A DNA stretch of 63,553 nt, the filler included, from Reclinomonas americana ATCC 50394 (taxonomy: Eukaryota): assembly GCA_048213135.1 (NCBI GenBank). It is 12 parts of 3 records of this genome, joined end to end, with 100 filler letters (N's around TTAATTAATTAA, not from the genome) between each part and the next. Parts side by side here need not be neighbours in the genome. Positions count along the whole stretch, not along the records: positions 26,760 to 34,785 come from PS015571.1; 11 more parts are not named here. One strand, given 5' to 3'. Shown in pieces: positions 26,760-39,100 of the stretch. Within the stretch, counting starts at the first letter, position 1, and the number at the start of each line of letters is the position of its first letter. Both the position numbers and the translations under genes were made by a program. The notes under the pieces were generated by a model. It did no database searches, was not told the DNA's origin, and worked only from the letters and a program-made list of their open reading frames with translations.

Positions 26760-27641
26760 ACAGTGTATCCGAGCTGCAGCAACTCGGCCGTCATCTTCTC
26801 CGCAAAGAACTTGCGATAGTGATCCAACAGATACGCCGGCAATCGAGCCGCCGTTTGCGATTGCGCGAGGATAGCTGCGGTGGTGGCGGGAGCAGAGATG
26901 GTAGTGGTGGCCGTGGTGACGGTGGTAGCGGCGGCAGATGGAGAAGCCGCCGCAGTCTGCGGGGCGGCAGCGGTGGCTGGTTTGTTGACGATTTTGGAAG
27001 TTGCGTGGCCCTGAGCACAGACAAACGAGGTCAGGATTCACACCATCACACAAGCGGCCGCATTGCCCGTACCGTGCCCGTTCTGATGACAGTAACAGCG
27101 GATGCCGCCGGAGAGGGCGGTAATAGCATTGGAGACGGCGACGCGGGATCAATGCCAGAATGAGATTGACCGGGGGCGGCTTTCGATTGTGTTTGAGTGC
27201 CGCTGGGTACTGGACTCGCTGATGCGCTGGACGGAGTGGGCGTTCCGGTGGTCTTGGGATTCACTGCACAGCCGGTGGTCGAGTGAGAGAAAGAAAGAGA
27301 GAGAGAGAGAGGCAGAATGGAGTGCCACACAAGCATCACGCACGCTTGTCGCGAACGGCTGCATGCCGCAGCGCCAACTTTGGTCTGTCGACCTTGGCCT
27401 CTTCCGGGAACAACTCGAGCATGCGCGGCAACAGTGAGGCCTCGTAGGAACGCGAGTTGATGCTGCGGTGGTGTGCTTCGTCAATACAACAGCACCTCAA
27501 AAGCAATAGCAGCAGCATGATTGGTGACGGCGGACGCAACGCATTCTTGCGCTCGTAGATCTGATGAATGATATTGTCGATGTGCGAGGTCCACGGATAC
27601 CGCACACGCAGCCGGTCGGCGGCATAGGTGCGGCGGAAAAA
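26760..27641 (-). CDS. Fragment of unknown protein with Ser/Thr/Ala/Pro-rich linker
   Basis: Three canonical introns join FFRRTYAADRL...KNA|INSRSYEASLLPRMLELF...|low-complexity linker...YRKFFAEKM. Possibly part of the 25339 gene on a flipped contig, with a likely last exon at 28512-28661 (+). Confidence 0.5.
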
Positions 27642-28429
27642 CTGCACACACACACANNNNNNNNNNNNNNNNNNNNNNNNNNNNNNNNNNNNNNNNNNNN
27701 NNNNNNNNNNNNNNNNNNNNNNNNNNNNNNNNNNNNNNNNNNNNNNNNNNNNNNNNNNNNNNNNNNNNNNNNNNNNNNNNNNNNNNNNNNNNNNNNNNNN
27801 NNNNNNNNNNNNNNNNNNNNNNNNNNNNNNNNNNNNNNNNNNNNNNNNNNNNNNNNNNNNNNNNNNNNNNNNNNNNNNNNNNNNNNNNNNNNNNNNNNNN
27901 NNNNNNNNNNNNNNNNNNNNNNNNNNNNNNNNNNNNNNNNNNNNNNNNNNNNNNNNNNNNNNNNNNNNNNNNNNNNNNNNNNNNNNNNNNNNNNNNNNNN
28001 NNNNNNNNNNNNNNNNNNNNNNNNNNNNNNNNNNNNNNNNNNNNNNNNNNNNNNNNNNNNNNNNNNNNNNNNNNNNNNNNNNNNNNNNNNNNNNNNNNNN
28101 NNNNNNNNNNNNNNNNNNNNNNNNNNNNNNNNNNNNNNNNNNNNNNNNNNNNNNNNNNNNNNNNNNNNNNNNNNNNNNNNNNNNNNNNNNNNNNNNNNNN
28201 NNNNNNNNNNNNNNNNNNNNNNNNNNNNNNNNNNNNNNNNNNNNNNNNNNNNNNNNNNNNNNNNNNNNNNNNNNNNNNNNNNNNNNNNNNNNNNNNNNNN
28301 NNNNNNNNNNNNNNNNNNNNNNNNNNNNNNNNNNNNNNNNNNNNNNNNNNNNNNNNNNNNNNNNNNNNNNNNNNNNNNNNNNNNNNNNNNNNNNNNNNNN
28401 NNNNNNNNNNNNNNNNNNNNNNNNNNNNN

Positions 28430-28471
<42 letters not shown>

Positions 28472-28688
28472 GTCAACGGTGTGTTTTTTTCCTGAATTCC
28501 CCCTGGTGCAGGAACAAGCCCGAGAATACATCGAATCACAGGCGGTGAAGCATGCCAAGGACCATGTGCAGGCCACCAAGCGCTCTCACTCGCAAGCCAG
28601 TGGTGCTCGTGACTCGAGTTCATCACCAGAGCGCAAGCGGCAAAACTCCGGCACTGAATGAATCCAACAAAAAAAATTTACAACGGGT

Positions 28689-29643
28689 TCACTTGGCAAT
28701 GTCGAGAAGGAACACCATTGTCTGCCGCTCGGCACCTCGCGCAATGTCCTGGAGGAAACGATGGAATTGTGAAATTGGCGAGCACCTTAGGGGGAGGAAA
28801 ACCAACGTACCACCAGATGCGGTGTGGCGGCAAACTCGGAGGTTGCGGCAAGCAGTGGCAGTTTCTTGCCGATGAAGATACTGCGGCGGGTGGAAGAGAG
28901 CACGTGAGAACGAGGTGTGCACATAGTGGTGCAAGGCAAGAATAAGAATGCACTCACGCCAAGTCGAATGGTTGCACGATTGAGTGCGAAAAATCCTCCG
29001 CCGCCACAAACTCATTAGTCTGCCGGTCCACGATTTGCAGGCCTGGCACATCGGAGAGCACACCAATGGTGAGAATACCGGTGTCTTCGTGCACCTCGCA
29101 CGCCAGTCGGTTGTGCACGTTGCGCAGGTAGTGTATCAACGACACGCTGCTCTTCTCAAACGAGAACTCTCGAATGGCGTCAAAGGTCTCCGCCGGCAAC
29201 AGTGGCGGTTCGCCGACGCGCGGATCCGCTGTGTGCTGCACAATCGCAGTGAACGCCCCCCATGCCACGCCGTGCAGCACACGAAAGGCTTCCTGATACA
29301 GCGCTTGCAGCTGAGGTGGTCGACTGGGAATCACGGCCGGTGGGTCACACGGCCGCATCTGCCATTGCGTGTAAGAACACAGTGAGGCGGCATCTTCCGA
29401 CACATCTCCACCGACGACCTTGATGTACTCGCGAACTCCCGGCACCGTGACGTAGCCGAGATTGGGTGGGAACTCGAGATGCTCACGCGATGGCACACAC
29501 TGCGACTTTTCCTCGTCGCTCAACTTGAAAAACTCGTCACTCGCGCGTCGCAAGTCCACCAGTATCTGGCGCTCGGCAGGTGGCAGACGAATCAAAGCGT
29601 AGCCGTAGTGGGCGAGAGAATCGCGAATCGAAAGGTGTGCCTC
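28689..29643 (-). CDS. 2OG-Fe(II) dioxygenase domain (IPNS/DIOX-like), probably the C-terminal module of the upstream SagB gene
   Basis: YGYALIRL N-terminal motif, HEDTGILTI (HxD), GLQI, distal His in ATPHLV, R-Q-T at the RxS position. Stop TGA ends at 28689. Confidence 0.85.
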
Positions 29644-29734
29644 CTTGTGTGCTGCGCGGTGGTGAGCACGATTGGCCGCCATCGGTGCGACAACAGTGCG
29701 TGTGTGTAGCGACGCAACACAAATGACAGCAAAC

Positions 29735-32700
29735 CAGGTGCTGCGCGTGTGAAACCACGATCGACAGCGCCTGCCGCACCAAGCAGTGCGGCAACCCTTG
29801 CTGCTCCGACTCTAGCATCACCAGCGCGCGTCGAAGGCATTCGATCTCCGGTCGCATGGCGAACGGAATGGGAGACGCCTCGGCGTGCTCGTCCACCAGT
29901 GGCACGGACGACAACACCGGCTGTTGCACGGGAACAATAGCGCCGAGTGCGGGCAGTTCTGTGGCGTCAACAGAGCGCCCGGTGGCCAACTGGTGTTGTA
30001 CTGCAGGCTCTGGTGCATGAGTACTCGATATAGTCACGAAGGCCCGACAGCAATAGACACACACCTCGCGGATCGTGCAGACCGCGACGAATCAGATGCA
30101 AGGTATCAGCGTCAACGTTGTCCACGTGGAAGAACGGCTCCTCGTCCGGGCACTCGAGCAGCTCGTCTTGATTGGCGACACCAGCCGCAAACATGTAGAC
30201 GCACACTGTGCTCATGTCGGACTGCGGACAGACACAAAGAAAGGCACGTGAAAAACTCGGGGATGTGACACAGGCAGGCGAAACACACAGAGCAGAGTGG
30301 AACCTGAGCGGGGTAGTCCACCACCAAGTCCGAGAACGTGTTACGCACGCGCTCATCCAGGTAGCACCCCATACCGGTGCCGGAAAACCCGCGACGCTCG
30401 AGTTCTGCAACAGCAGGTGAGAGGCACATGAAATCAAATTCATAATAATCCACCGCAACCACACCGATGTAGGCTACGTGCGCAGCCACTGCAGCAGTCC
30501 AGTGCACCCTTCGATACCATACGCCCGCCGACACAGGCTGCTCGGCAACCGCAACGGCGTCGCTGCGAGGAATGGGAGCCAGGAAACACAAGCAGAACGA
30601 TGAGTTGCGCAGAAAGTTCTGGCGACAACTTAAGCTGAACGCGAGTTGTGAAGCCTCCTCCTCACTCAGCTGCACACGAGAGGTGTGAGAAGAGAGGATA
30701 CATGGGTGTAATAATCGTCTGTGCGGCATCCGTCACACACCGACGACACCAGCCGCAGCTGCGGCAAACTGGGAACGATGGGATCACCCGACACCCGACG
30801 GTCGACATCCACAGACGACGGACCCGTCGGAAGCACATACACGCCGCTTTCGAGACCATCCACTCGCGTCACAACGATGCCGACGGTGAGTGGCACAGTG
30901 TGGAGTTGACTGGCCGTACCGCTCCACACCGAGTCTCGCTCATGTGCTCTGTCACGAGCCGCAATGCTTTCGAGAACAGCCACCAGCGTCTCCAGAGTCA
31001 CCGTTCCTCCCGCGGCAAACTCGGTGGCCGATCGGCGTTTTCGCACAATGTGCATGAACGAATCGCTCGCGTCAACGCTTTGCAGGCGTGCATCTGTGCG
31101 ACAACCAGACTGTAGTCAGCTGCAGCGATCTCATACCAAACGGCATGCACCATGCATGGCGCGCACCAACGAGTGGGACGTGCACGTCGGGCATCTCCGA
31201 GGGATCGGCATCTGGTCGTCTCTGCTGCGGAGCGACATCACCGGCGACGACGTGCTGCTGTGCACATGCTTGCTCCGCCATGTCGACCAGTGGCCAGTGT
31301 GTGAATCGCTCGCTCACGGGTAGTTTTCGCCCCGACAGTACTGCAACATCACCACACGCACTGTTATTGTCGGCCGTCACCACGGAACGCACTGAGCAAG
31401 AAGAATGGCCGTTGTCTGTACCTGTGCTACTGCGATATGCGGGGAGTAAAGTGTCTCGCCACTGCGCCGACATGCAGACCGGCTCCGAAACAGCCGAGTC
31501 GACTGCTGTTGTGTACACAGCCAGCACACACACAGACTTTTCGCGTTCCACATCGGCCACCGGATGGTGCTCGTCTCCAATCAGCACACTGACATCGTCG
31601 TCAGTGACATTGTTGACAACTCGCACACACCAACCAAGCGCAGCGGCTGCGTAGCCAATGGCACCAAGTACGTGCCCTATGACGAACATCGTGTATCAGT
31701 TGTTATCAGTGCGGCACAACAACGCTGCCGCCCAGCAGCGTGTACCTTCGTCCAACAGGCAGTATCGCAGGGCACGCTCGCCATACTTCCACACCTCACG
31801 CCAGTGCACGGAGGTAATTACCAGCAGAAAAGACGGCGCACTCGGTCCTCCAACACAGCACCTGCAAAGTGGAGAGCACGGTCGCACGTGAGCGTTGGCT
31901 GAACGGAGAGGGCCACATAATATCGTGTTGATGCACACGGACCGCTGAAACTCAAGGAACATGTCGTGTGGCATTGGCCGTATCACTTCCAGCGCATGCC
32001 CGACACTGTGGTAGTGGTACACAGCAGGCTGCCGCACACTCTACGCACGCATAGCAGTCACTCATCCGAGAGGCGCAGTTGACAACACCACCGCACGCCA
32101 AACGAACCTGCTGCTGCCGCTGATCGACGAGTGCGCGCACGCGCGTACCGAGTCCCGGCACAACCGGCAACACGGCGTAGCATTCGACGGGGAAGAGGCC
32201 ACCGCTGGATGGATTCACACGCTTGGTGTACGAACCAACAGAGCCACGCTTGCGTGCCGACACGGCGAGACTCGTGTAGAAAAACTCGGACAGCGAGACA
32301 AGATCCAGTGGCTGATCTGTTGGTGGGTGTGTCGTTAAGTGCGTGAGTGTGAGAGAAGCAAGTGTTTTGCCAACGCAACGAGGCAACTGGCCACTGAACA
32401 AGGTGGTGAACCGCGGCGACAAGTGCTGCTTGCGATCAAAGCGAACAAGGGGAACAACACGAGCTCCGAGATGTCGCATGAATGGCTGCGGTTGGTTGGC
32501 CCACTCTGCGCATTGGCACGCATCGCAGCAAGAGTCAGCAATCGCAAAGCTTCCTAACGGTGCCGAAGGGAGTGACCGACCTCGCCGCAGAGTACGCGCA
32601 GCACCTTCGTCCGAGTTGCGCGTCTCGCAGTGATAGAACCACAAGGCGGCTGCCGGAGTCGTTTGTGCATCCGGAAGCTCGACGCCAGGTCGCAGCGTGA

Positions 32701-33415
32701 TGCTGAGCTCCTGCTCTGCACTGCTCTCTTCTGCCTCACGACCACCCACAGACTGAGTGAGCACTCACAGCACTTTGAAAGAAGACAACTGCGACAACAA
32801 CAAACCATTCTGCTGTCGCCGCGCTCGCACCTCTCGCACTCGCTGCAGGTCGCGTTCATACGCATCGTGGAGTGCCGTCACATGGTCCAGCAATGCTGCG
32901 CGGCGATCGTCGGAGCACAGCACACGCGTGTCTCTGTCGTTCGCGGCAACATGATCGATCGGGATGGGTGAGAGTGCGAGGAATGATCGTATTCTCCACC
33001 GACGACGCGCACCTCAGCAGCTGATCGACTCCCTGCGGCCCCAGAAGGAGAAGCTGCTTCCCGTCGAGAGACAAGTGGCTGTGCATTTATACGCATCGAT
33101 GAGCGAAAATAGCAGAAACGCCCAGGCGAGTTCTGCTGCGCAACTCCACCAGGCTCTCGACAAACTCTTCGCAGCCGACAGAGCGCAACCACGCGGCAAC
33201 GACCTCTGGCTCCCACAGCTCGGGCACTGTGAGAGAGGAGGTGGGAGGACGACCTCAATGTGCATTCCAATTTGTGCTTCATCACCTCTAGCGTACTCTT
33301 CCAGCTCCGCAGCGATCAGGGCATCGCCGGTCAGCGGTCCTGCGTCGCGCGCTTCTCGTTGAACAGGTGCTGCATCGCTTCCGCTGTGGGCGGGCGCTGA
33401 TCGGCCTGCTCCCAT
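29735..33415 (-). CDS. Predicted N-myristoylated SAM-domain + tandem SagB/ThcOx-type FMN nitroreductase protein
   Basis: Starts MGAGRS (MGxxxS). SAM-like LWEPEVVAAWLRSVGCEEFVESL...LDGKQLLLL. SagB-type motifs EWANQPQPF, RVNPSSGGLFPVECY, WREVWKYGERALRYCLLDEGH. Second domain IVRKRRSA...TGMGCYLD. All exons join through GT-AG introns. Confidence 0.85.
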
Positions 33416-33837
33416 TGGTTGCTTGGAGAATGTGCGATCGAGTGGGACGACGGACGGGNNNNNNNNNNNNNNNNNNNNNNNNNNNNNNNNNNNNNNNNNN
33501 NNNNNNNNNNNNNNNNNNNNNNNNNNNNNNNNNNNNNNNNNNNNNNNNNNNNNNNNNNNNNNNNNNNNNNNNNNNNNNNNNNNNNNNNNNNNNNNNNNNN
33601 NNNNNNNNNNNNNNNNNNNNNNNNNNNNNNNNNNNNNNNNNNNNNNNNNNNNNNNNNNNNNNNNNNNNNNNNNNNNNNNNNNNNNNNNNNNNNNNNNNNN
33701 NNNNNNNNNNNNNNNNNNNNNNNNNNNNNNNNNNNNNNNNNNNNNNNNNNNNNNNNNNNNNNNNNNNNNNNNNNNNNNNNNNNNNNNNNNNNNNNNNNNN
33801 NNNNNNNNNNNNNNNNNNNNNNNNNNNNNNNNNNNNN

Positions 33838-34692
33838 GTGTCGGGTCTGCTGCTGAAGAAGGAGCTCGACTACTTCTCCAGGGTGCTTGACGAGCCGGCG
33901 CGTCCGTTCTTGGCCATCATGGGCGGCGCCAAGGTCCACGACAAGATCCAGCTGATTGAGAACATGCTCGACAAGGTCGACGAGATGATTATTGGTGGTG
34001 GCATGGCCTTCACCTTCAAGAAGCAGCTGTACAACGTGAAGGTAATGAGAGTGTGTGTGCACTCTCTCGTTGCCACTGCGCAGTGTCCTTCTTCTCACAA
34101 CTGAGGTGCCGCCCACGCAGATCGGCAACTCGCTGTTCGACGAGGAGGGTGCCGGCATTGTGTTGAACATTATCGAGAAGGCGGAGACCAGGGGTGTGCG
34201 CCTGCACCTGCCCCTTGACTACGTGTGTGGCAACAAGTTTGCTGCGGACGCCGAGACGCAGATTGTCACGGACGAGCAGGGCGTGCCCGACGGCTGGATG
34301 GGTCTGGATGTGGGTCCGGCCAGCACTGAGCTGTTTGCCGAAGTCATTGGCCGCGCCAAGACCATTCTGTGGAACGGGTGAGCTAAGAACACGTCTCCAC
34401 CTACTTTGTCGCTCCTGTGGGTTGCTGAGCATTTTTGTGTGTGTGCCGCAGACCGATGGGCGTGTTCGAGATGGAGAAGTTTGCCACTGGCTCGCTGCGC
34501 ATGCTGGACAACGTGGTGGCGGCGACCGATGCCGGCGCCGTGACTGTGGTGGGTGGTGGCGACACGGCTGCACTGGTGACGCAGGCCGGTGCCGCGGAGC
34601 GCGTCGGCCACGTGAGCACTGGCGGTGGTGCAAGTCTGGAGCTGCTCGAGGGCAAGGTGCTGCCGGGCGTCGTCGCTCTGTCGGACAAGTAA
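33838..34692 (+). CDS. PGK: Phosphoglycerate kinase, 3' half
   Basis: [58 protein letters not shown]. Confidence 0.97.
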
Positions 34693-34885
34693 GCACTTGT
34701 ATCGCTGCAGATCGCGTTTTGTTTCGTTTTTGTTTCTGTGTTTGTCGAGTGGCGTGACAAGTGAAGGAAGAAGCACGGTTGTACTNNNNNNNNNNNNNNN
34801 NNNNNNNNNNNNNNNNNNNNNNNNNNNNNTTAATTAATTAANNNNNNNNNNNNNNNNNNNNNNNNNNNNNNNNNNNNNNNNNNNN

Positions 34886-36114: not shown

Positions 36115-39100
36115 TTAACAGAGTTTGACTTGGATGGTGAAGGGCGAGCACTTGAGTGGTCCGTGCAGAACAGATTCCACGTGAAGAAGGTACGTCTCGG
36201 GGCGCGGTGGTGTGTACTTGATCGTGTACGTTCCGTCGCCTGCAGTGCCCGTGTCAGTTGATGCACACACGGAGAGACAGAAAGATAGAGAGAGAGAACC
36301 CACCGTTGCTGCTGACGGTGCAGAAGAACTTCTTCTCCTTGCCGTGCCGATCGGTGCCAAAGGCCGAAAAGTCCTCCTGTGGAATGGTATTCTGCAGCAC
36401 CTCGTTGCCGAAGCTGCAGCTCACAAGTATGAGAAATTTCAGTGTCGTCGGCTGCACGCCTCCACTCCGCTCTCACTCACCGATCACGTGAGAGCATGTG
36501 GAACTTGACGGGGAAGCCGACACGCGGTCGGTACAGGCCTGGCCCACGGCACTCAAAGGCCTCCAGCGACGCCATGGCTGGCGACACCACAAACACAGGC
36601 AGTCGGTGCTCCAGCAGCTTTCCGTTGCATCGCACGCTGAGCTGATTGTCGCCAGCCACTGTCGGATACAGTGCGAACTCGAGATCGCCATTCTTCTGTC
36701 GCTTGACCTGCGCGCCGAGGGAACGATGAGCACAGTGGGTGCAGCCAGGCGAAGTCGCACTGATAGCCATGGTCGCAACTTCGCCCTTGACTACGCTTGC
36801 ATTGTCGTCATTGACAGGCATGCATTCGACCTCAAAGTTCGCTTCCGACACAACATTGTCGAAGCGGTCGCGAGCCTCCACCAACCCACGCACCGCCGTG
36901 CCCGCAATGACACGTGCGTGGCCGCGCAGATGCAACAATACGACTGTCTTGGAGAGCACCGGCTCATCTGCGAGAGAGAGCGAGAGCGATGACCATCAGC
37001 AACATGCGTGGTGTCGAGAGCGACGTGAGCGGACTCTACCTGGCACCACTGCGAATATGGATGTCGGAGTGGCCGCCTGTCCATCAACGGTCACCAACAC
37101 TTGCGCTTCTCCGGCCACCTCTGGTACATAGGAGCACGTGTAGGTTCCATTACCGTGATTCACCACATCGCACACGAGGCTGGCGGCACGCGGAGTACTG
37201 CACCGGNNNNNNNNNNNNNNNNNNNNNNNNNNNNNNNNNNNNNNNNNNNNTTAATTAATTAANNNNNNNNNNNNNNNNNNNNNNNNNNNNNNNNNNNNNN
37301 NNNNNNGCAGTCCGTTTACCATCACGGTGTGCCGGGGCCGGTGTTTGCCAAGACCACGTATGTCACGGGTCCTGGCGTGAGTACCGCCCGCTGCGGGTCG
37401 ACCACAGAATTTTATGTGCAACTGCGTGACGCGTGCGGCAATTGCGTCTACACACCACATCCGGTCGTCAAGGCCACTGTGCTGCTTGGCATGCGGTGCG
37501 TCAGTGTGCTTCTGGGCTTCTGCATGCGCGTGTGATGGTGTGCTGATGGGTGTGATNNNNNNNNNNNNNNNNNNNNNNNNNNNNNNNNNNNNNNNNNNNN
37601 NNNNNNNNNNNNNNNNNNNNNNNNNNNNNNNNNNNNNNNNNNNNNNNNNNNNNNNNNNNNNNNNNNNNNNNNNNNNNNNNNNNNNNNNNNNNNNNNNNNN
37701 NNNNNNNNNNNNNNNNNNNNNNNNNNNNNNNNNNNNNNNNNNNNNNNNNNNNNNNNNNNNNNNNNNNNNNNNNNNNNNNNNNNNNNNNNNNNNNNNNNNN
37801 NNNNNNNNNNNNNNNNNNNNNNNNNNNNNNNNNNNNNNNNNNNNNNNNNNNNNNNNNNNNNNNNNNNNNNNNNNNNNNNNNNNNNNNNNNNNNNNNNNNN
37901 NNNNNNNNNNNNNNNNNNNNNNNNNNNNNNNNNNNNNNNNNNNNNNNNNNNNNNNNNNNNNNNNNNNNNNNNNNNNNNNNNNNNNNNNNNNNNNNNNNNN
38001 NNNNNNNNNNNNNNNNNNNNNNNNNNNNNNNNNNNNNNNNNNNNNNNNNNNNNNNNNNNNNNNNNNNNNNNNNNNNNNNNNNNNNNNNNNNNNNNNNNNN
38101 NNNNNNNNNNNNNNNNNNNNNNNNNNNNNNNNNNNNNNNNNNCAAACACCGGCACGTCGGCCACAGTCACGGTCATTGAGTGGAGACCAGCTTGCTCCAG
38201 TCGCTCGCAAATCTGCTCATGCGCTCTCGTCAGTCATAATTTGGCGTTCATGACGAGCAGAAACAACACACACACGTTCTCACCTGATGCGTGCCATCCA
38301 TGTTGTCGACAGACGCAAGCTCGGCTGACCACTCGTTCTCGGCAGAGGTGGCGTAAGGGCGCTGGCGAAGTGTCGGCTGTGTGCAGTGTTCAGTGAGCAT
38401 GATGATCCCACAAGTGCGCAGGATGACGAACTGCCACAACCAACCATCCACGCTGCCACGGGCACCACCACGCGGTCCAGACGCAATGTCACCCGCACTT
38501 GTTGGCCGCCGCGACTGCACGGCTGCAGGTATCGATCGGCAATCTGCAACACAGCATCCATCTCCACCGGCGCCACACCACCCAACATGCCGAAGCCGGT
38601 GAGGGTGCAGTTTGCCGGCACCGGAGCCGAGTCGGCGGTAAATGAGGCCCACTCGGCGGCACCCTCACCGCCAGCAATCTTGCGGAAGCGCTCGGAGAGT
38701 GTGTCACTTAGCGCCACCACCTGGTCAAACAGATCGCGACCGCACGCCTCGTACACGTCGTGCGTGCATTCCTCTGCAGGACACGATACGATGCAGGGAG
38801 GTAATGTGTAAGACGGGGGAAATTGATCTTTTCTGGCAGTGGCGTAAACTACAGACCGCGCTCTGCCAGTTTGAGCAACAGCTTCAGCGACTCGCGCGAG
38901 GCCTCCGAGTCTGGCGAATCCCGATAGTGCTTCACCAACATTGGAATTACGTTTTGTGCCACCAACTCCGACGTGTTGGCCTCTGCTCAGCGGCACATGC
39001 CGGTGAGAAGTCAGCAGAAGAGGGCAGCCGTGGCTCAAGGAAAAGCACCCACCGTTTCTAATCAAGTGGCGCAGAATCTTCAGACTGGCCTCTTGCGCCT

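Follow-up and report, generated by a model that had tools for sequence, protein, structure and literature searches.

Does one gene of Reclinomonas americana encode both a SagB-type nitroreductase and a 2OG-Fe(II) oxygenase, or do two genes share a strand? The question arises from a window of 63,553 nucleotides (filler included) of the draft genome of strain ATCC 50394 (assembly GCA_048213135.1), in which a first-pass annotation proposed a single myristoylated protein that joins the two enzymes. If the fusion is genuine and sits behind a membrane anchor and a SAM scaffold, it would offer a first, testable clue to where in the cell the two-domain SagB-type nitroreductases act and which pathway partner they have; no functional study of this family was found in the literature. 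If it is an artefact of splice prediction or assembly, the locus holds two ordinary enzymes side by side.

The answer favoured here is one 18-exon transcription unit, whose sole productive reading is a fused multidomain protein. This is the most economical reading and probably the right one, albeit unproven. The exon chain passes through identifiable domains and a coding linker exon, with neither a stop nor a spacer between the two enzymes.

An 18-exon gene model

The window strings together small scaffolds, with artificial linkers between them and many N gaps. Consequently, TMEM260 and filamin, whose introns the first-pass annotation used for comparison, lie on scaffolds other than that of the putative fusion gene. 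The draft assembly is fragmentary, and the scaffold of this gene includes at least one contig in the wrong orientation: a 948-nt contig with the C-terminal half of PGK runs opposite to the N-terminal half. The contig that carries the putative fusion gene is unbroken across 28430-33458, with no N. The features are as follows.

33459..33837, no strand: 379-N assembly gap just 5' of the gene
33286..33415, minus strand: exon 1, with ATG 33415-33413 and the MGAGRS N-terminus (43 codons)
33226-33145, minus strand: exon 2, SAM-like segment, with the SAM_2 match on the exon 2 ORF
33078-33013, minus strand: exon 3, in the stretch of SAM-like and charged segments (exons 2-4, 32806..33226)
32933-32806, minus strand: exon 4, in the same stretch
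30065..32730, minus strand: exons 5-14, nitroreductase module, complete two-domain SagB type (aa 162-794)
32730-32581, 32505-32395 and 32316-32108, minus strand: exons 5, 6 and 7, nitroreductase module
32028-31943, 31861-31746 and 31676-31137, minus strand: exons 8, 9 and 10, nitroreductase module
31093-30702 and 30669-30465, minus strand: exons 11 and 12, nitroreductase module
30404-30304 and 30221-30065, minus strand: exons 13 and 14, nitroreductase module
29735..30000, minus strand: exon 15, 89-codon linker without known domain, coding in the frame of exon 14
29643-28958, 28880-28811 and 28748-28689, minus strand: exons 16, 17 and 18, DOXC-type 2OG-Fe(II) oxygenase core, with stop 28691-28689

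Joined by coordinates along the minus strand (33415-28689), the 18 exons read as one uninterrupted frame for 1184 codons, beginning with ATG 33415 and ending at stop 28691-28689. The spliced frame first described from MGAGRS onward is thus intact, and its domain order stands: SAM-like, two SagB-type nitroreductase-fold domains, complete 2OG-Fe(II) oxygenase. Placing the donor of exon 5 at 32580 instead of 32604 gained 8 residues and lengthened the family alignment; the predicted product is about 1184-1192 residues. A possible convergent gene ends 28 nt from the stop of the 18-exon gene.

The N-terminus and the SAM-like segment

The MGAGRSA N-terminus matches the N-myristoylation pattern (PROSITE-type, Met-Gly plus permissive residues). 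An N gap starts 43 nt upstream of ATG 33415 and the frame is open as far as that gap, so the MGAGRS start, and with it the 5' end of the gene, is provisional.

The proposed SAM domain fares less evenly. Its position in the domain order fits, and five of eight weak PDB matches to the segment, the top ones included, are SAM-domain proteins. However, the HMM match is partial and below threshold: with the ORF of exon 2 as query, SAM_2 reaches 19.7 bits (cut-off 20.5; E=9.4e-4; profile positions 1-25 of 66), and SAM_1 (PF00536) reaches 14.8 bits against a gathering threshold of 23. No match at the gathering threshold (PF07647/PF00536) spans the five-helix domain in these unspliced pieces, over which the domain is split among three exons, and exons 3 and 4 searched singly give no SAM match. 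The charged segment that follows looks helical by eye.

The nitroreductase module

A profile built from 36 bacterial relatives aligns with the module at 277.3 bits (positions 5-534 of 545, aa 162-794), end to end over both halves, in agreement with the two nitroreductase-fold, SagB-type domains recognized initially. This continuous alignment, ending at aa 794, validates exons 6-14. When unspliced ORF pieces are searched, the highest TIGR03605 score is 35.4 bits, from the ORF that covers exons 8-9 (E=7.2e-9), against a whole-protein cut-off of 78.4 bits; four bacterial relatives pass this cut-off at 85.9-104.3 bits. The module keeps 54 of the 79 invariant family columns, including the YHxxT, PSSG, WRExWKYGERA, and RRS motifs; the 25 altered residues fall mainly in the second domain. 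Within the PSSGNLHPT motif N124, H126, and T128 are altered, but RRS and the KYGER-type motif are retained.

By its sequence, then, the module is a two-domain SagB-type nitroreductase of the 3EO7/At1g02020 family, and presumably binds FMN. This family is widespread, with 537 confirmed loci among species representatives of bacteria and archaea, and it also occurs in plants; a model of Arabidopsis At1g02020 superposes on 3EO7 (PMC7538488). The only structure found for the family, 3EO7, is a structural-genomics deposit.

The oxygenase

The complete HxD...H 2OG-Fe(II) oxygenase reported at first is there. The triad (HED plus distal His) and the C-terminal Arg that belongs to the 2OG site all line up with the consensus of the family, and a profile of 39 relatives matches at 202 bits over HMM positions 28/30-283 of 291. 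Because the domain is intact in these respects and contains two in-frame introns of its own, it presumably is translated. Exon 16 searched alone, with the domain split by two introns, scores 21.4 against 27.3 bits for DIOX_N (PF14226) and 14.3 against 23 for 2OG-FeII_Oxy (PF03171); PF03171 matches in 24 of 28 aligned family members. Compared with the PDB, the family profile finds DOXC structures over its whole length (1.5e-17).

The 79 oxygenase relatives are all at most 406 aa, with a best identity of 35%. Among these stand-alone proteins 27 have an MG start, and 22 fit the myristoylation pattern. The core is preceded by a median of 29 residues, and by 15 or fewer in 8 of 42. The oxygenase could have a start of its own at ATG 29682, with 13 codons between it and the core and a pyrimidine in the -3 position. 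This start would omit the family LPxPI motif, the counterpart in the alignment of the first strand in DOXC enzymes of known structure. A search of exon 15 for the LPxPI region found no counterpart (PSSM best -4.2, p about 0.31), and the top 15 matches of a motif HMM do not include the exon 15 ORF.

The linker exon

In the fused reading, a linker of about 115 residues, exon 15 included, separates the nitroreductase module from the oxygenase. As first described, its frame is open, with no stop before the donor at 29734; nor does it contain an ATG upstream of 29857. Its first 47 codons are strongly coding, scoring +12.7 bits in the fused frame versus -14.5 and -14.2 in the other two, a value matched by none of 5000 shuffles, none of 1031 intron windows, and no off-frame exon window. 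Exon 15 must therefore be translated from upstream exons. Moreover, since it has neither a stop nor a start of its own, the nitroreductase gene abuts the oxygenase without an intergenic spacer.

The intron 15 junction

Everything then turns on how intron 15 is spliced. Its elements are these.

29644..29734, minus strand: disputed intron 15, with donor 29734 and acceptors CAG 29652 and AAG 29644
29727 and 29718, minus strand: alternative in-frame donors, which reach CAG 29652 in frame
29682-29680, minus strand: oxygenase-frame ATG, inside intron 15
29666-29662, minus strand: CTCAC branch motif, its A 19 nt from the AAG acceptor and 11 nt from the CAG acceptor

Of these, the donor at 29734, both acceptors, and their distances to CTCAC are as the first-pass annotation placed them. 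Its preferred acceptor, AAG 29644, does yield the in-frame fusion. As a splice site it is poor: it scores -5.3 bits, compared with 4.1-12.5 for the 16 other acceptors of the gene; it requires that the CAG at 29652 (9.9 bits) be skipped; and AAG serves only 1 of 23 other introns, versus 20 for CAG. Donor 29734 scores 6.1 bits and the two alternative donors 0.4 and 0.0, where real donors span 0.8-10.5. One in-frame donor hexamer is that of intron 2, here paired with a good CAG acceptor.

Distance from the branch motif places 29652 in between: the farthest skipped AG lies 10 nt away and the nearest clearly used AG 13 nt away, as against 11 nt here. Cases of skipped AGs close to the motif are seen in this gene and in PGK. 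(PGK intron 4 has a possible used AG at 10 nt from its motif.)

The best-scoring pair, 29734 to 29652, gives a 19-residue out-of-frame tail and then a stop, the short terminating tail noted originally; retention of intron 15 leads to a stop at 29537. No reading meets a stop ahead of the oxygenase core, and all the unfused ones terminate inside exon 16, near 29592 or at 29537. In the unfused form two introns would follow a premature stop, an arrangement to which the usual nonsense-mediated-decay rule applies. Fusion, on the other hand, does not depend on the AAG site, because donors 29718 and 29727 join CAG 29652 in frame. An in-frame junction is not informative beyond chance, because 24 of the 60 GT-AG pairs enumerated around it also fuse the frames. 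We infer a frame-preserving splice of intron 15, by 29734 to 29644 or by 29718/29727 to 29652.

One protein or two?

Besides the open exon chain, the coding linker exon and the intact oxygenase, further points favour fusion: three intron routes yield it; this oxygenase copy lacks an MG start of its own, and the upstream gene has one; and there is no spacer, versus about 300 and about 515 nt in the two tandem gene pairs measurable nearby (the larger value from a gap estimate). Against it stand the best donor and the best acceptor, which together give a truncated, unfused product; the low scores of AAG 29644 and of the alternative donors; the failure to detect the family N-terminal motif in exon 15; the relatives with short N-termini; the lack of a fused relative among those examined; and the draft state of the assembly.

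The truncated product is the starting point of the most serious alternative, which is unlikely nonetheless. Splicing from 29734 to 29652 would yield a protein of about 932 aa with the 19-residue tail, and the oxygenase would be translated from ATG 29682 of a separate transcript. Such a junction pairs the top donor with the top acceptor, of the CAG type common in the other introns, and its 3' end, CTCAC then CAG, resembles those of introns 11 and 12. However, the tail comes from reading DNA that encodes the oxygenase out of frame (this DNA scores -8.3 bits in the frame of the tail and +5.5 in that of the oxygenase), and a continuing transcript would have its premature stop before two introns. 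The possible convergent gene nearby suggests tight packing, but here the upstream stop would fall about 90 nt inside a downstream coding exon on the same strand, far from the spacers of the nearby tandem pairs. The in-frame ATG fits relatives with short N-termini, and the family profile scores its reading (202.4 bits) as well as the fused one (202.1 bits); this start nevertheless has the -3 pyrimidine, and would leave the oxygenase without the first-strand motif of its family.

An assembly artefact is less probable again. A chimeric join or small indel would have united a nitroreductase gene lacking its 3' end with an oxygenase lacking its first exon. The short scaffolds, the many gaps, and the inverted PGK contig make errors plausible, but the contig at issue is continuous. 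The absence of a nitroreductase stop, and of the MG start and LPxPI region that make the oxygenase resemble a truncated fragment, would follow naturally; yet both halves lie on the same strand, GC content and codon-position GC are even across the join, and the join itself resembles one ordinary intron of 67-91 nt with donor, branch motif, and acceptor. Intron 15 contains a CA-rich 12-mer whose copies are scattered through the window, although the junction repeats are all 13 nt or shorter.

Finally, two tandem genes, with intron 14 unspliced so that read-through of its donor stops at 29969-29967, and with the oxygenase starting at ATG 29857 and using intron 15, are very improbable: that start would give 41 codons before exon 16 (within the range of N-terminal lengths in relatives), but the stretch 30000-29858 codes too strongly for a spacer or UTR, no more than about 110 nt would be left between the genes, and the same in-frame intron 15 splice is still required.

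A membrane-anchored redox scaffold?

On the single-gene reading, the protein would begin with an N-terminus that has glycine at position 2, in keeping with the myristoylation pattern, followed by the SAM-like segment; a complete two-domain SagB-type module, presumably FMN-binding; the linker; and a DOXC-type oxygenase that would have lost the N-terminal anchor region of its stand-alone relatives. Such a protein may be lipid-anchored and self-associating, and both redox modules may act on one substrate or pathway at the membrane. It likely originated when the upstream gene captured exon 2 onward of a once-separate N-myristoylated oxygenase gene.

A real fusion might also serve as a Rosetta stone linking the 3EO7/At1g02020 nitroreductases with this small protist 2OG oxygenase family, with its recurrent myristoylation pattern, in one membrane oxidative pathway. 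A lipid-anchored, SAM-oligomerised scaffold would hold the two together, and 3' splice sites 8 nt apart would set the balance between fused enzyme and a truncated, decay-prone message. This proposal is tentative and, on balance, doubtful.

Comparison with known systems

No comparable fusion occurs among the 79 oxygenase relatives or the 10 long relatives of the nitroreductase module, in keeping with an architecture not recognized at first sight. The profile of bacterial relatives matches 3EO7, a 'putative nitroreductase' of Anabaena variabilis, at 2.7e-47. Proteins of this type share 26-30% BLASTP identity with the module over about 590-660 residues. Save for a few long forms they are stand-alone, at 274-589 aa, and no other domain was found in the 45 relatives of up to 589 aa; here, an MG/SAM-like N-terminus and a C-terminal oxygenase are added.

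The azoline oxidases SagB, McbC, ThcOx, CyaGox, and BmdC have the nitroreductase fold and a TIGR03605-type core in common with the module, and the FMN domain of ThcOx and residues 97-245 of 3EO7 can be superposed at 1.45 A (PMC5108345). Nevertheless, the relatives' profile matches them far more weakly than 3EO7 (BmdC 4.5e-10; McbC 5e-4; CyaGox 5e-3). In 80 bacterial loci (plus or minus 6 kb, compared by general neighbour family) no gene neighbour was shared beyond 12 loci of one clade, and no sign of an azoline substrate was found on the single 5-kb contig available for the eukaryote. The RiPP azoline-oxidase role suggested initially is not supported; the module belongs to a widespread, stand-alone 3EO7-type family.

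The oxygenase shares its triad and C-terminal Arg with DOXC enzymes such as tri-ketone dioxygenase (8ETN) and anthocyanidin synthase (1GP4). Within its own family of short oxygenases, many members have the LPxPI first-strand motif, which this copy would lack if started at ATG 29682.

The long nitroreductase relatives offer a parallel in layout. None of the ten contains a 2OG or SAM domain or matches the oxygenase profile. Nine, of Nitrospina type (1033-1037 aa), have the module at the N-terminus and then an extension of about 480 residues; PF00248 is listed for one of the nine. They differ from the present protein in being bacterial, in lacking a SAM domain or MG start, and in an extension that is not a 2OG oxygenase, but they indicate that the module tolerates C-terminal fusion.

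Gene model

The minus strand of 28400-33700 was read, and exon boundaries were set by coordinate. On this basis 18 exons can be chained into a gene that opens with the ATG at 33415, closes with the stop codon 28691-28689, and is free of stops in between. With the exon 5 donor at 32580 the model has 1184 codons (1176 in the first model). The most economical account, which we consider reasonably probable, is a single gene whose productive message encodes an MG start, a SAM-like segment, a two-domain SagB-type nitroreductase, a linker, and a 2OG oxygenase.

The 17 introns measure 32-99 nt. Their donors are very degenerate, with little beyond GT. The acceptors, intron 15 left out, are CAG in 15 of 16 cases and TAG in one. 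For seven introns (2, 4, 5, 6, 8, 9, and 12), the length is a multiple of three. Of these, introns 5, 6, and 8 also lack in-frame stops, so that their retention would keep the reading frame; long ORFs cross exons 5-7 (region 31952-32764, minus strand) and exons 8-9.

The nitroreductase module

ORF pieces from the module match TIGR03605 (best E=7.2e-9), with weak TIGR04511 matches in both halves. The exon 8-9 ORF, used as a query, identified 45 relatives of 274-589 aa, in 44 of which PF00881 is the only domain. The profile built from 36 of these relatives (480-600 aa) aligns with aa 162-794 of the spliced protein, with a score of 277.3 bits over positions 5-534 of 545. This continuous alignment validates exons 5-14, and places the end of the module near aa 794. 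The module keeps 54 of the 79 columns that are invariant in an 18-sequence alignment. Against the family profile, the interdomain insert of exon 10 is a large insertion. Inside this long insert lies a GT...AG stretch of in-frame length (31421-31340, minus strand), which could be an extra intron.

The first-pass annotation pointed to azoline oxidation by SagB-type FMN enzymes in bacterial RiPP pathways; for an azoline-oxidase reading of this module we find no support. The relatives score above the TIGR03605 cut-off. Their profile matches 3EO7, the structure of a putative nitroreductase from Anabaena variabilis, with E=2.7e-47, far better than it matches BmdC, McbC, and CyaGox. The 80 best loci of the relatives share no neighbour family beyond one 12-locus clade, and so offer no functional link. 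In published work, 3EO7 is linked to Arabidopsis At1g02020 (PMC7538488) and to the FMN domain of ThcOx (PMC5108345). The two-domain family is widespread, with 537 confirmed loci.

The oxygenase

A comparison of exon 16 with 1.84 billion representatives yielded 79 relatives, the best 35% identical, and no self or near-self match; these relatives make up a small family. With 202 bits, a profile of 39 relatives matches exons 16-18 as far as the C-terminal end of the family, and the oxygenase has both the HxD...H triad and the Arg. This family profile matches solved DOXC enzymes full-length (~1e-17), and PF03171 is matched by 24 of 28 family members. An ESM Atlas search with exon 16 returned only unnamed clusters of the DIOX_N type. 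The oxygenase profile matches none of the 3746 ORFs from the 80 bacterial nitroreductase loci, and the window holds no paralogue of either module.

Evidence for one transcription unit

Exon 15 (29735..30000) encodes the linker. Read in the frame of exon 14, its first 47 codons score +12.7 bits; the other two frames give -14.5 and -14.2. None of 5000 shuffles, none of 1031 intron windows (maximum 6.6), and no off-frame exon window attains +12.7 bits; the median for in-frame exon windows is 7.7. Exon 15 is coding and its coding frame has no ATG before 29857, so it is part of the upstream gene. An arrangement of two tandem genes, with the nitroreductase stopping at 29967 and the oxygenase starting at 29857, is contradicted by the coding signal of 30000-29858.

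All readings beyond exon 15 enter the oxygenase coding exon: they are fused to it, end in a 19-residue tail, or stop at 29537. The tail belongs to the main alternative, in which the upstream gene is spliced at the strong CAG acceptor of intron 15 and the oxygenase is made from its own transcript. The best-scoring donor and acceptor pair, 29734 (6.1 bits) with 29652, indeed truncates the protein. However, the tail reads oxygenase-coding DNA out of frame: its own frame scores -8.3 bits, the frame of the oxygenase +5.5. Furthermore, no spacer separates nitroreductase and oxygenase, compared with ~300 nt (filamin-like gene to PGK) and ~515 nt (PGK to the studied gene, using the gap estimate) for nearby tandem genes. 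Separate products are accordingly unlikely in our estimation, and the single fused message is the preferred reading.

The intron 15 junction

The sites at intron 15, the junction between linker and oxygenase, are as follows.

Sites at intron 15
29734, minus strand: donor (coordinate read)
29682, minus strand: in-frame ATG of the oxygenase frame, inside the disputed intron
29666-29662, minus strand: branch motif CTCAC (coordinate read)
29652, minus strand: end of the CAG acceptor, 11 nt from the branch A
29644, minus strand: end of the AAG acceptor, 19 nt from the branch A

The first-pass annotation joined 29734 to 29644, passing over the CAG. Its coordinates for donor, branch motif, both acceptors, and ATG are correct on the sequence; the choice of acceptor is less secure, since 29644 scores -5.3 bits, whereas 29652 scores 9.9 and the other 16 acceptors of the gene score 4.1-12.5. 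With PGK included, 23 other introns end in CAG (20), TAG (two), or AAG (one). The sole AAG, in PGK intron 2 (35572-35493, minus strand), lies 22 nt from its branch A, and is the first AG past its CTCAC motif.

Distance from the branch A does not discriminate between the acceptors. Soon after a CTCA[CT] motif, AGs at distances of 5, 8, 8, and 10 nt are skipped; the nearest AG that is clearly used lies at 13 nt, and in PGK intron 4 one at 10 nt is possibly used. The AG at 11 nt (29652) falls between these values. Intron 4 of the studied gene also skips a GAG, 23 nt from the branch A and 4 nt ahead of the CAG that is used.

Fusion is independent of the AAG site. Donors 29718 and 29727, each paired with the CAG acceptor, also give an in-frame fusion; both score ~0 bits, and the hexamer at 29718 is identical to the intron 2 donor. 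The in-frame state is no evidence by itself, because 24 of the 60 GT-AG pairs enumerated produce a fusion. Nor does the oxygenase family profile discriminate between the fused start (202.1 bits) and a start at ATG 29682 (202.4 bits). The N-terminal length of the relatives, which varies widely (median 29 residues; 15 or fewer in eight of 42), is similarly not discriminating.

Most full-length oxygenase relatives carry an N-terminal LPxPI motif, the counterpart in the alignment of the first strand of tri-ketone dioxygenase. In a MAFFT alignment, a stretch of exon 15 that contains LP fell beneath this motif. It was dropped as evidence: a motif HMM from 29 relatives ranked the exon 15 ORF outside the top 15 of 1032 six-frame pieces, and the best exon 15 score with a 16-column PSSM from 24 relatives was -4.2 (p about 0.31), which is not significant.

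Assembly setting

Small scaffolds, linked by spacers that carry stops in all frames, make up the window, which is not a chromosome segment.

Spacers between scaffolds (n=11)
7921, 19238, 23864, 26704, 34830, 37251, 39231, 49836, 52569, 56366, 59430: N44-TTAATTAATTAA-N44

Gene neighbourhood across a spacer therefore provides no physical evidence. The studied gene fills the gap-free contig 28430-33458, within the scaffold 26760-34785. The PGK gene is split: a 948-nt contig of this same scaffold carries the C-terminal half on the plus strand (33839-34692), and the start of the next scaffold carries the N-terminal 185 codons on the minus strand (35814-34886). Because the halves are on opposite strands, the C-terminal contig appears to be inverted. 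The assembly is a rough draft. Filamin-repeat-like ORFs (36115-36995, minus strand) lie upstream of PGK, the last ending ~300 nt ahead of the PGK ATG; with the 948-nt contig flipped, the filamin-like gene would form a minus-strand tandem with PGK and the studied gene.

A chimeric join, which the draft state and the misoriented contig might suggest, is quite improbable, as matches to the junction region elsewhere in the window are all 13 nt or shorter and GC content is even across the contig.

Downstream, a plus-strand open frame (28490-28661) ends at a distance of 28 nt from the stop codon of the studied gene. Its frame-specific coding score is +1.9, while the other two frames give -27.4 and -14.4; it is possibly the 3' end of a convergent gene emerging from the N gap at 27657-28429.

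The N-terminus

The MGAGRS start fits the N-myristoylation pattern, but is a candidate N-terminus only: the N gap at 33459-33837 starts 43 nt ahead of the ATG, and no stop interrupts the frame between the two. The SAM-like domain proposed at first pass is plausible but sub-threshold. The exon 2 ORF matches SAM_2 with E=9.4e-4 and 19.7 bits (cut-off 20.5) over the first 25 of 66 profile positions, and SAM-domain proteins account for five of the eight weak PDB matches of the segment; exons 3 and 4, searched alone, gave no SAM match.

A probable new arrangement of known domains

If translated as proposed, a lipid-anchored and possibly self-associating protein would join a flavin-dependent oxidative step to an iron- and 2OG-dependent one. 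The upstream gene may have captured the oxygenase, whose anchor would then be provided by the N-terminus of the fusion. Stand-alone oxygenase relatives often have their own MG start (27 of 79, with 22 fitting the N-myristoylation pattern); its absence from this copy fits such a capture.

The first-pass annotation did not recognize this architecture. We likewise found no description of a SAM, nitroreductase, and 2OG oxygenase combination in the literature, and no fused relative among those examined: all 79 oxygenase relatives have at most 406 aa, and none of ten module relatives of at least 1032 aa contains a 2OG or SAM domain. The exon 5-7 ORF, searched against longer proteins, gave no relative. 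If real, the fusion is a new combination of familiar domains.

Other long proteins contain the module. A 1101-aa model from the dinoflagellate Effrenium voratum, possibly merged from separate genes, combines it with kinesin domains. Nine Nitrospina-type long forms (1033-1037 aa, one from Nitrospina watsonii) share the module with the studied gene, but continue into a different C-terminal extension of ~480 residues; one of the nine proteins has a PF00248 assignment.
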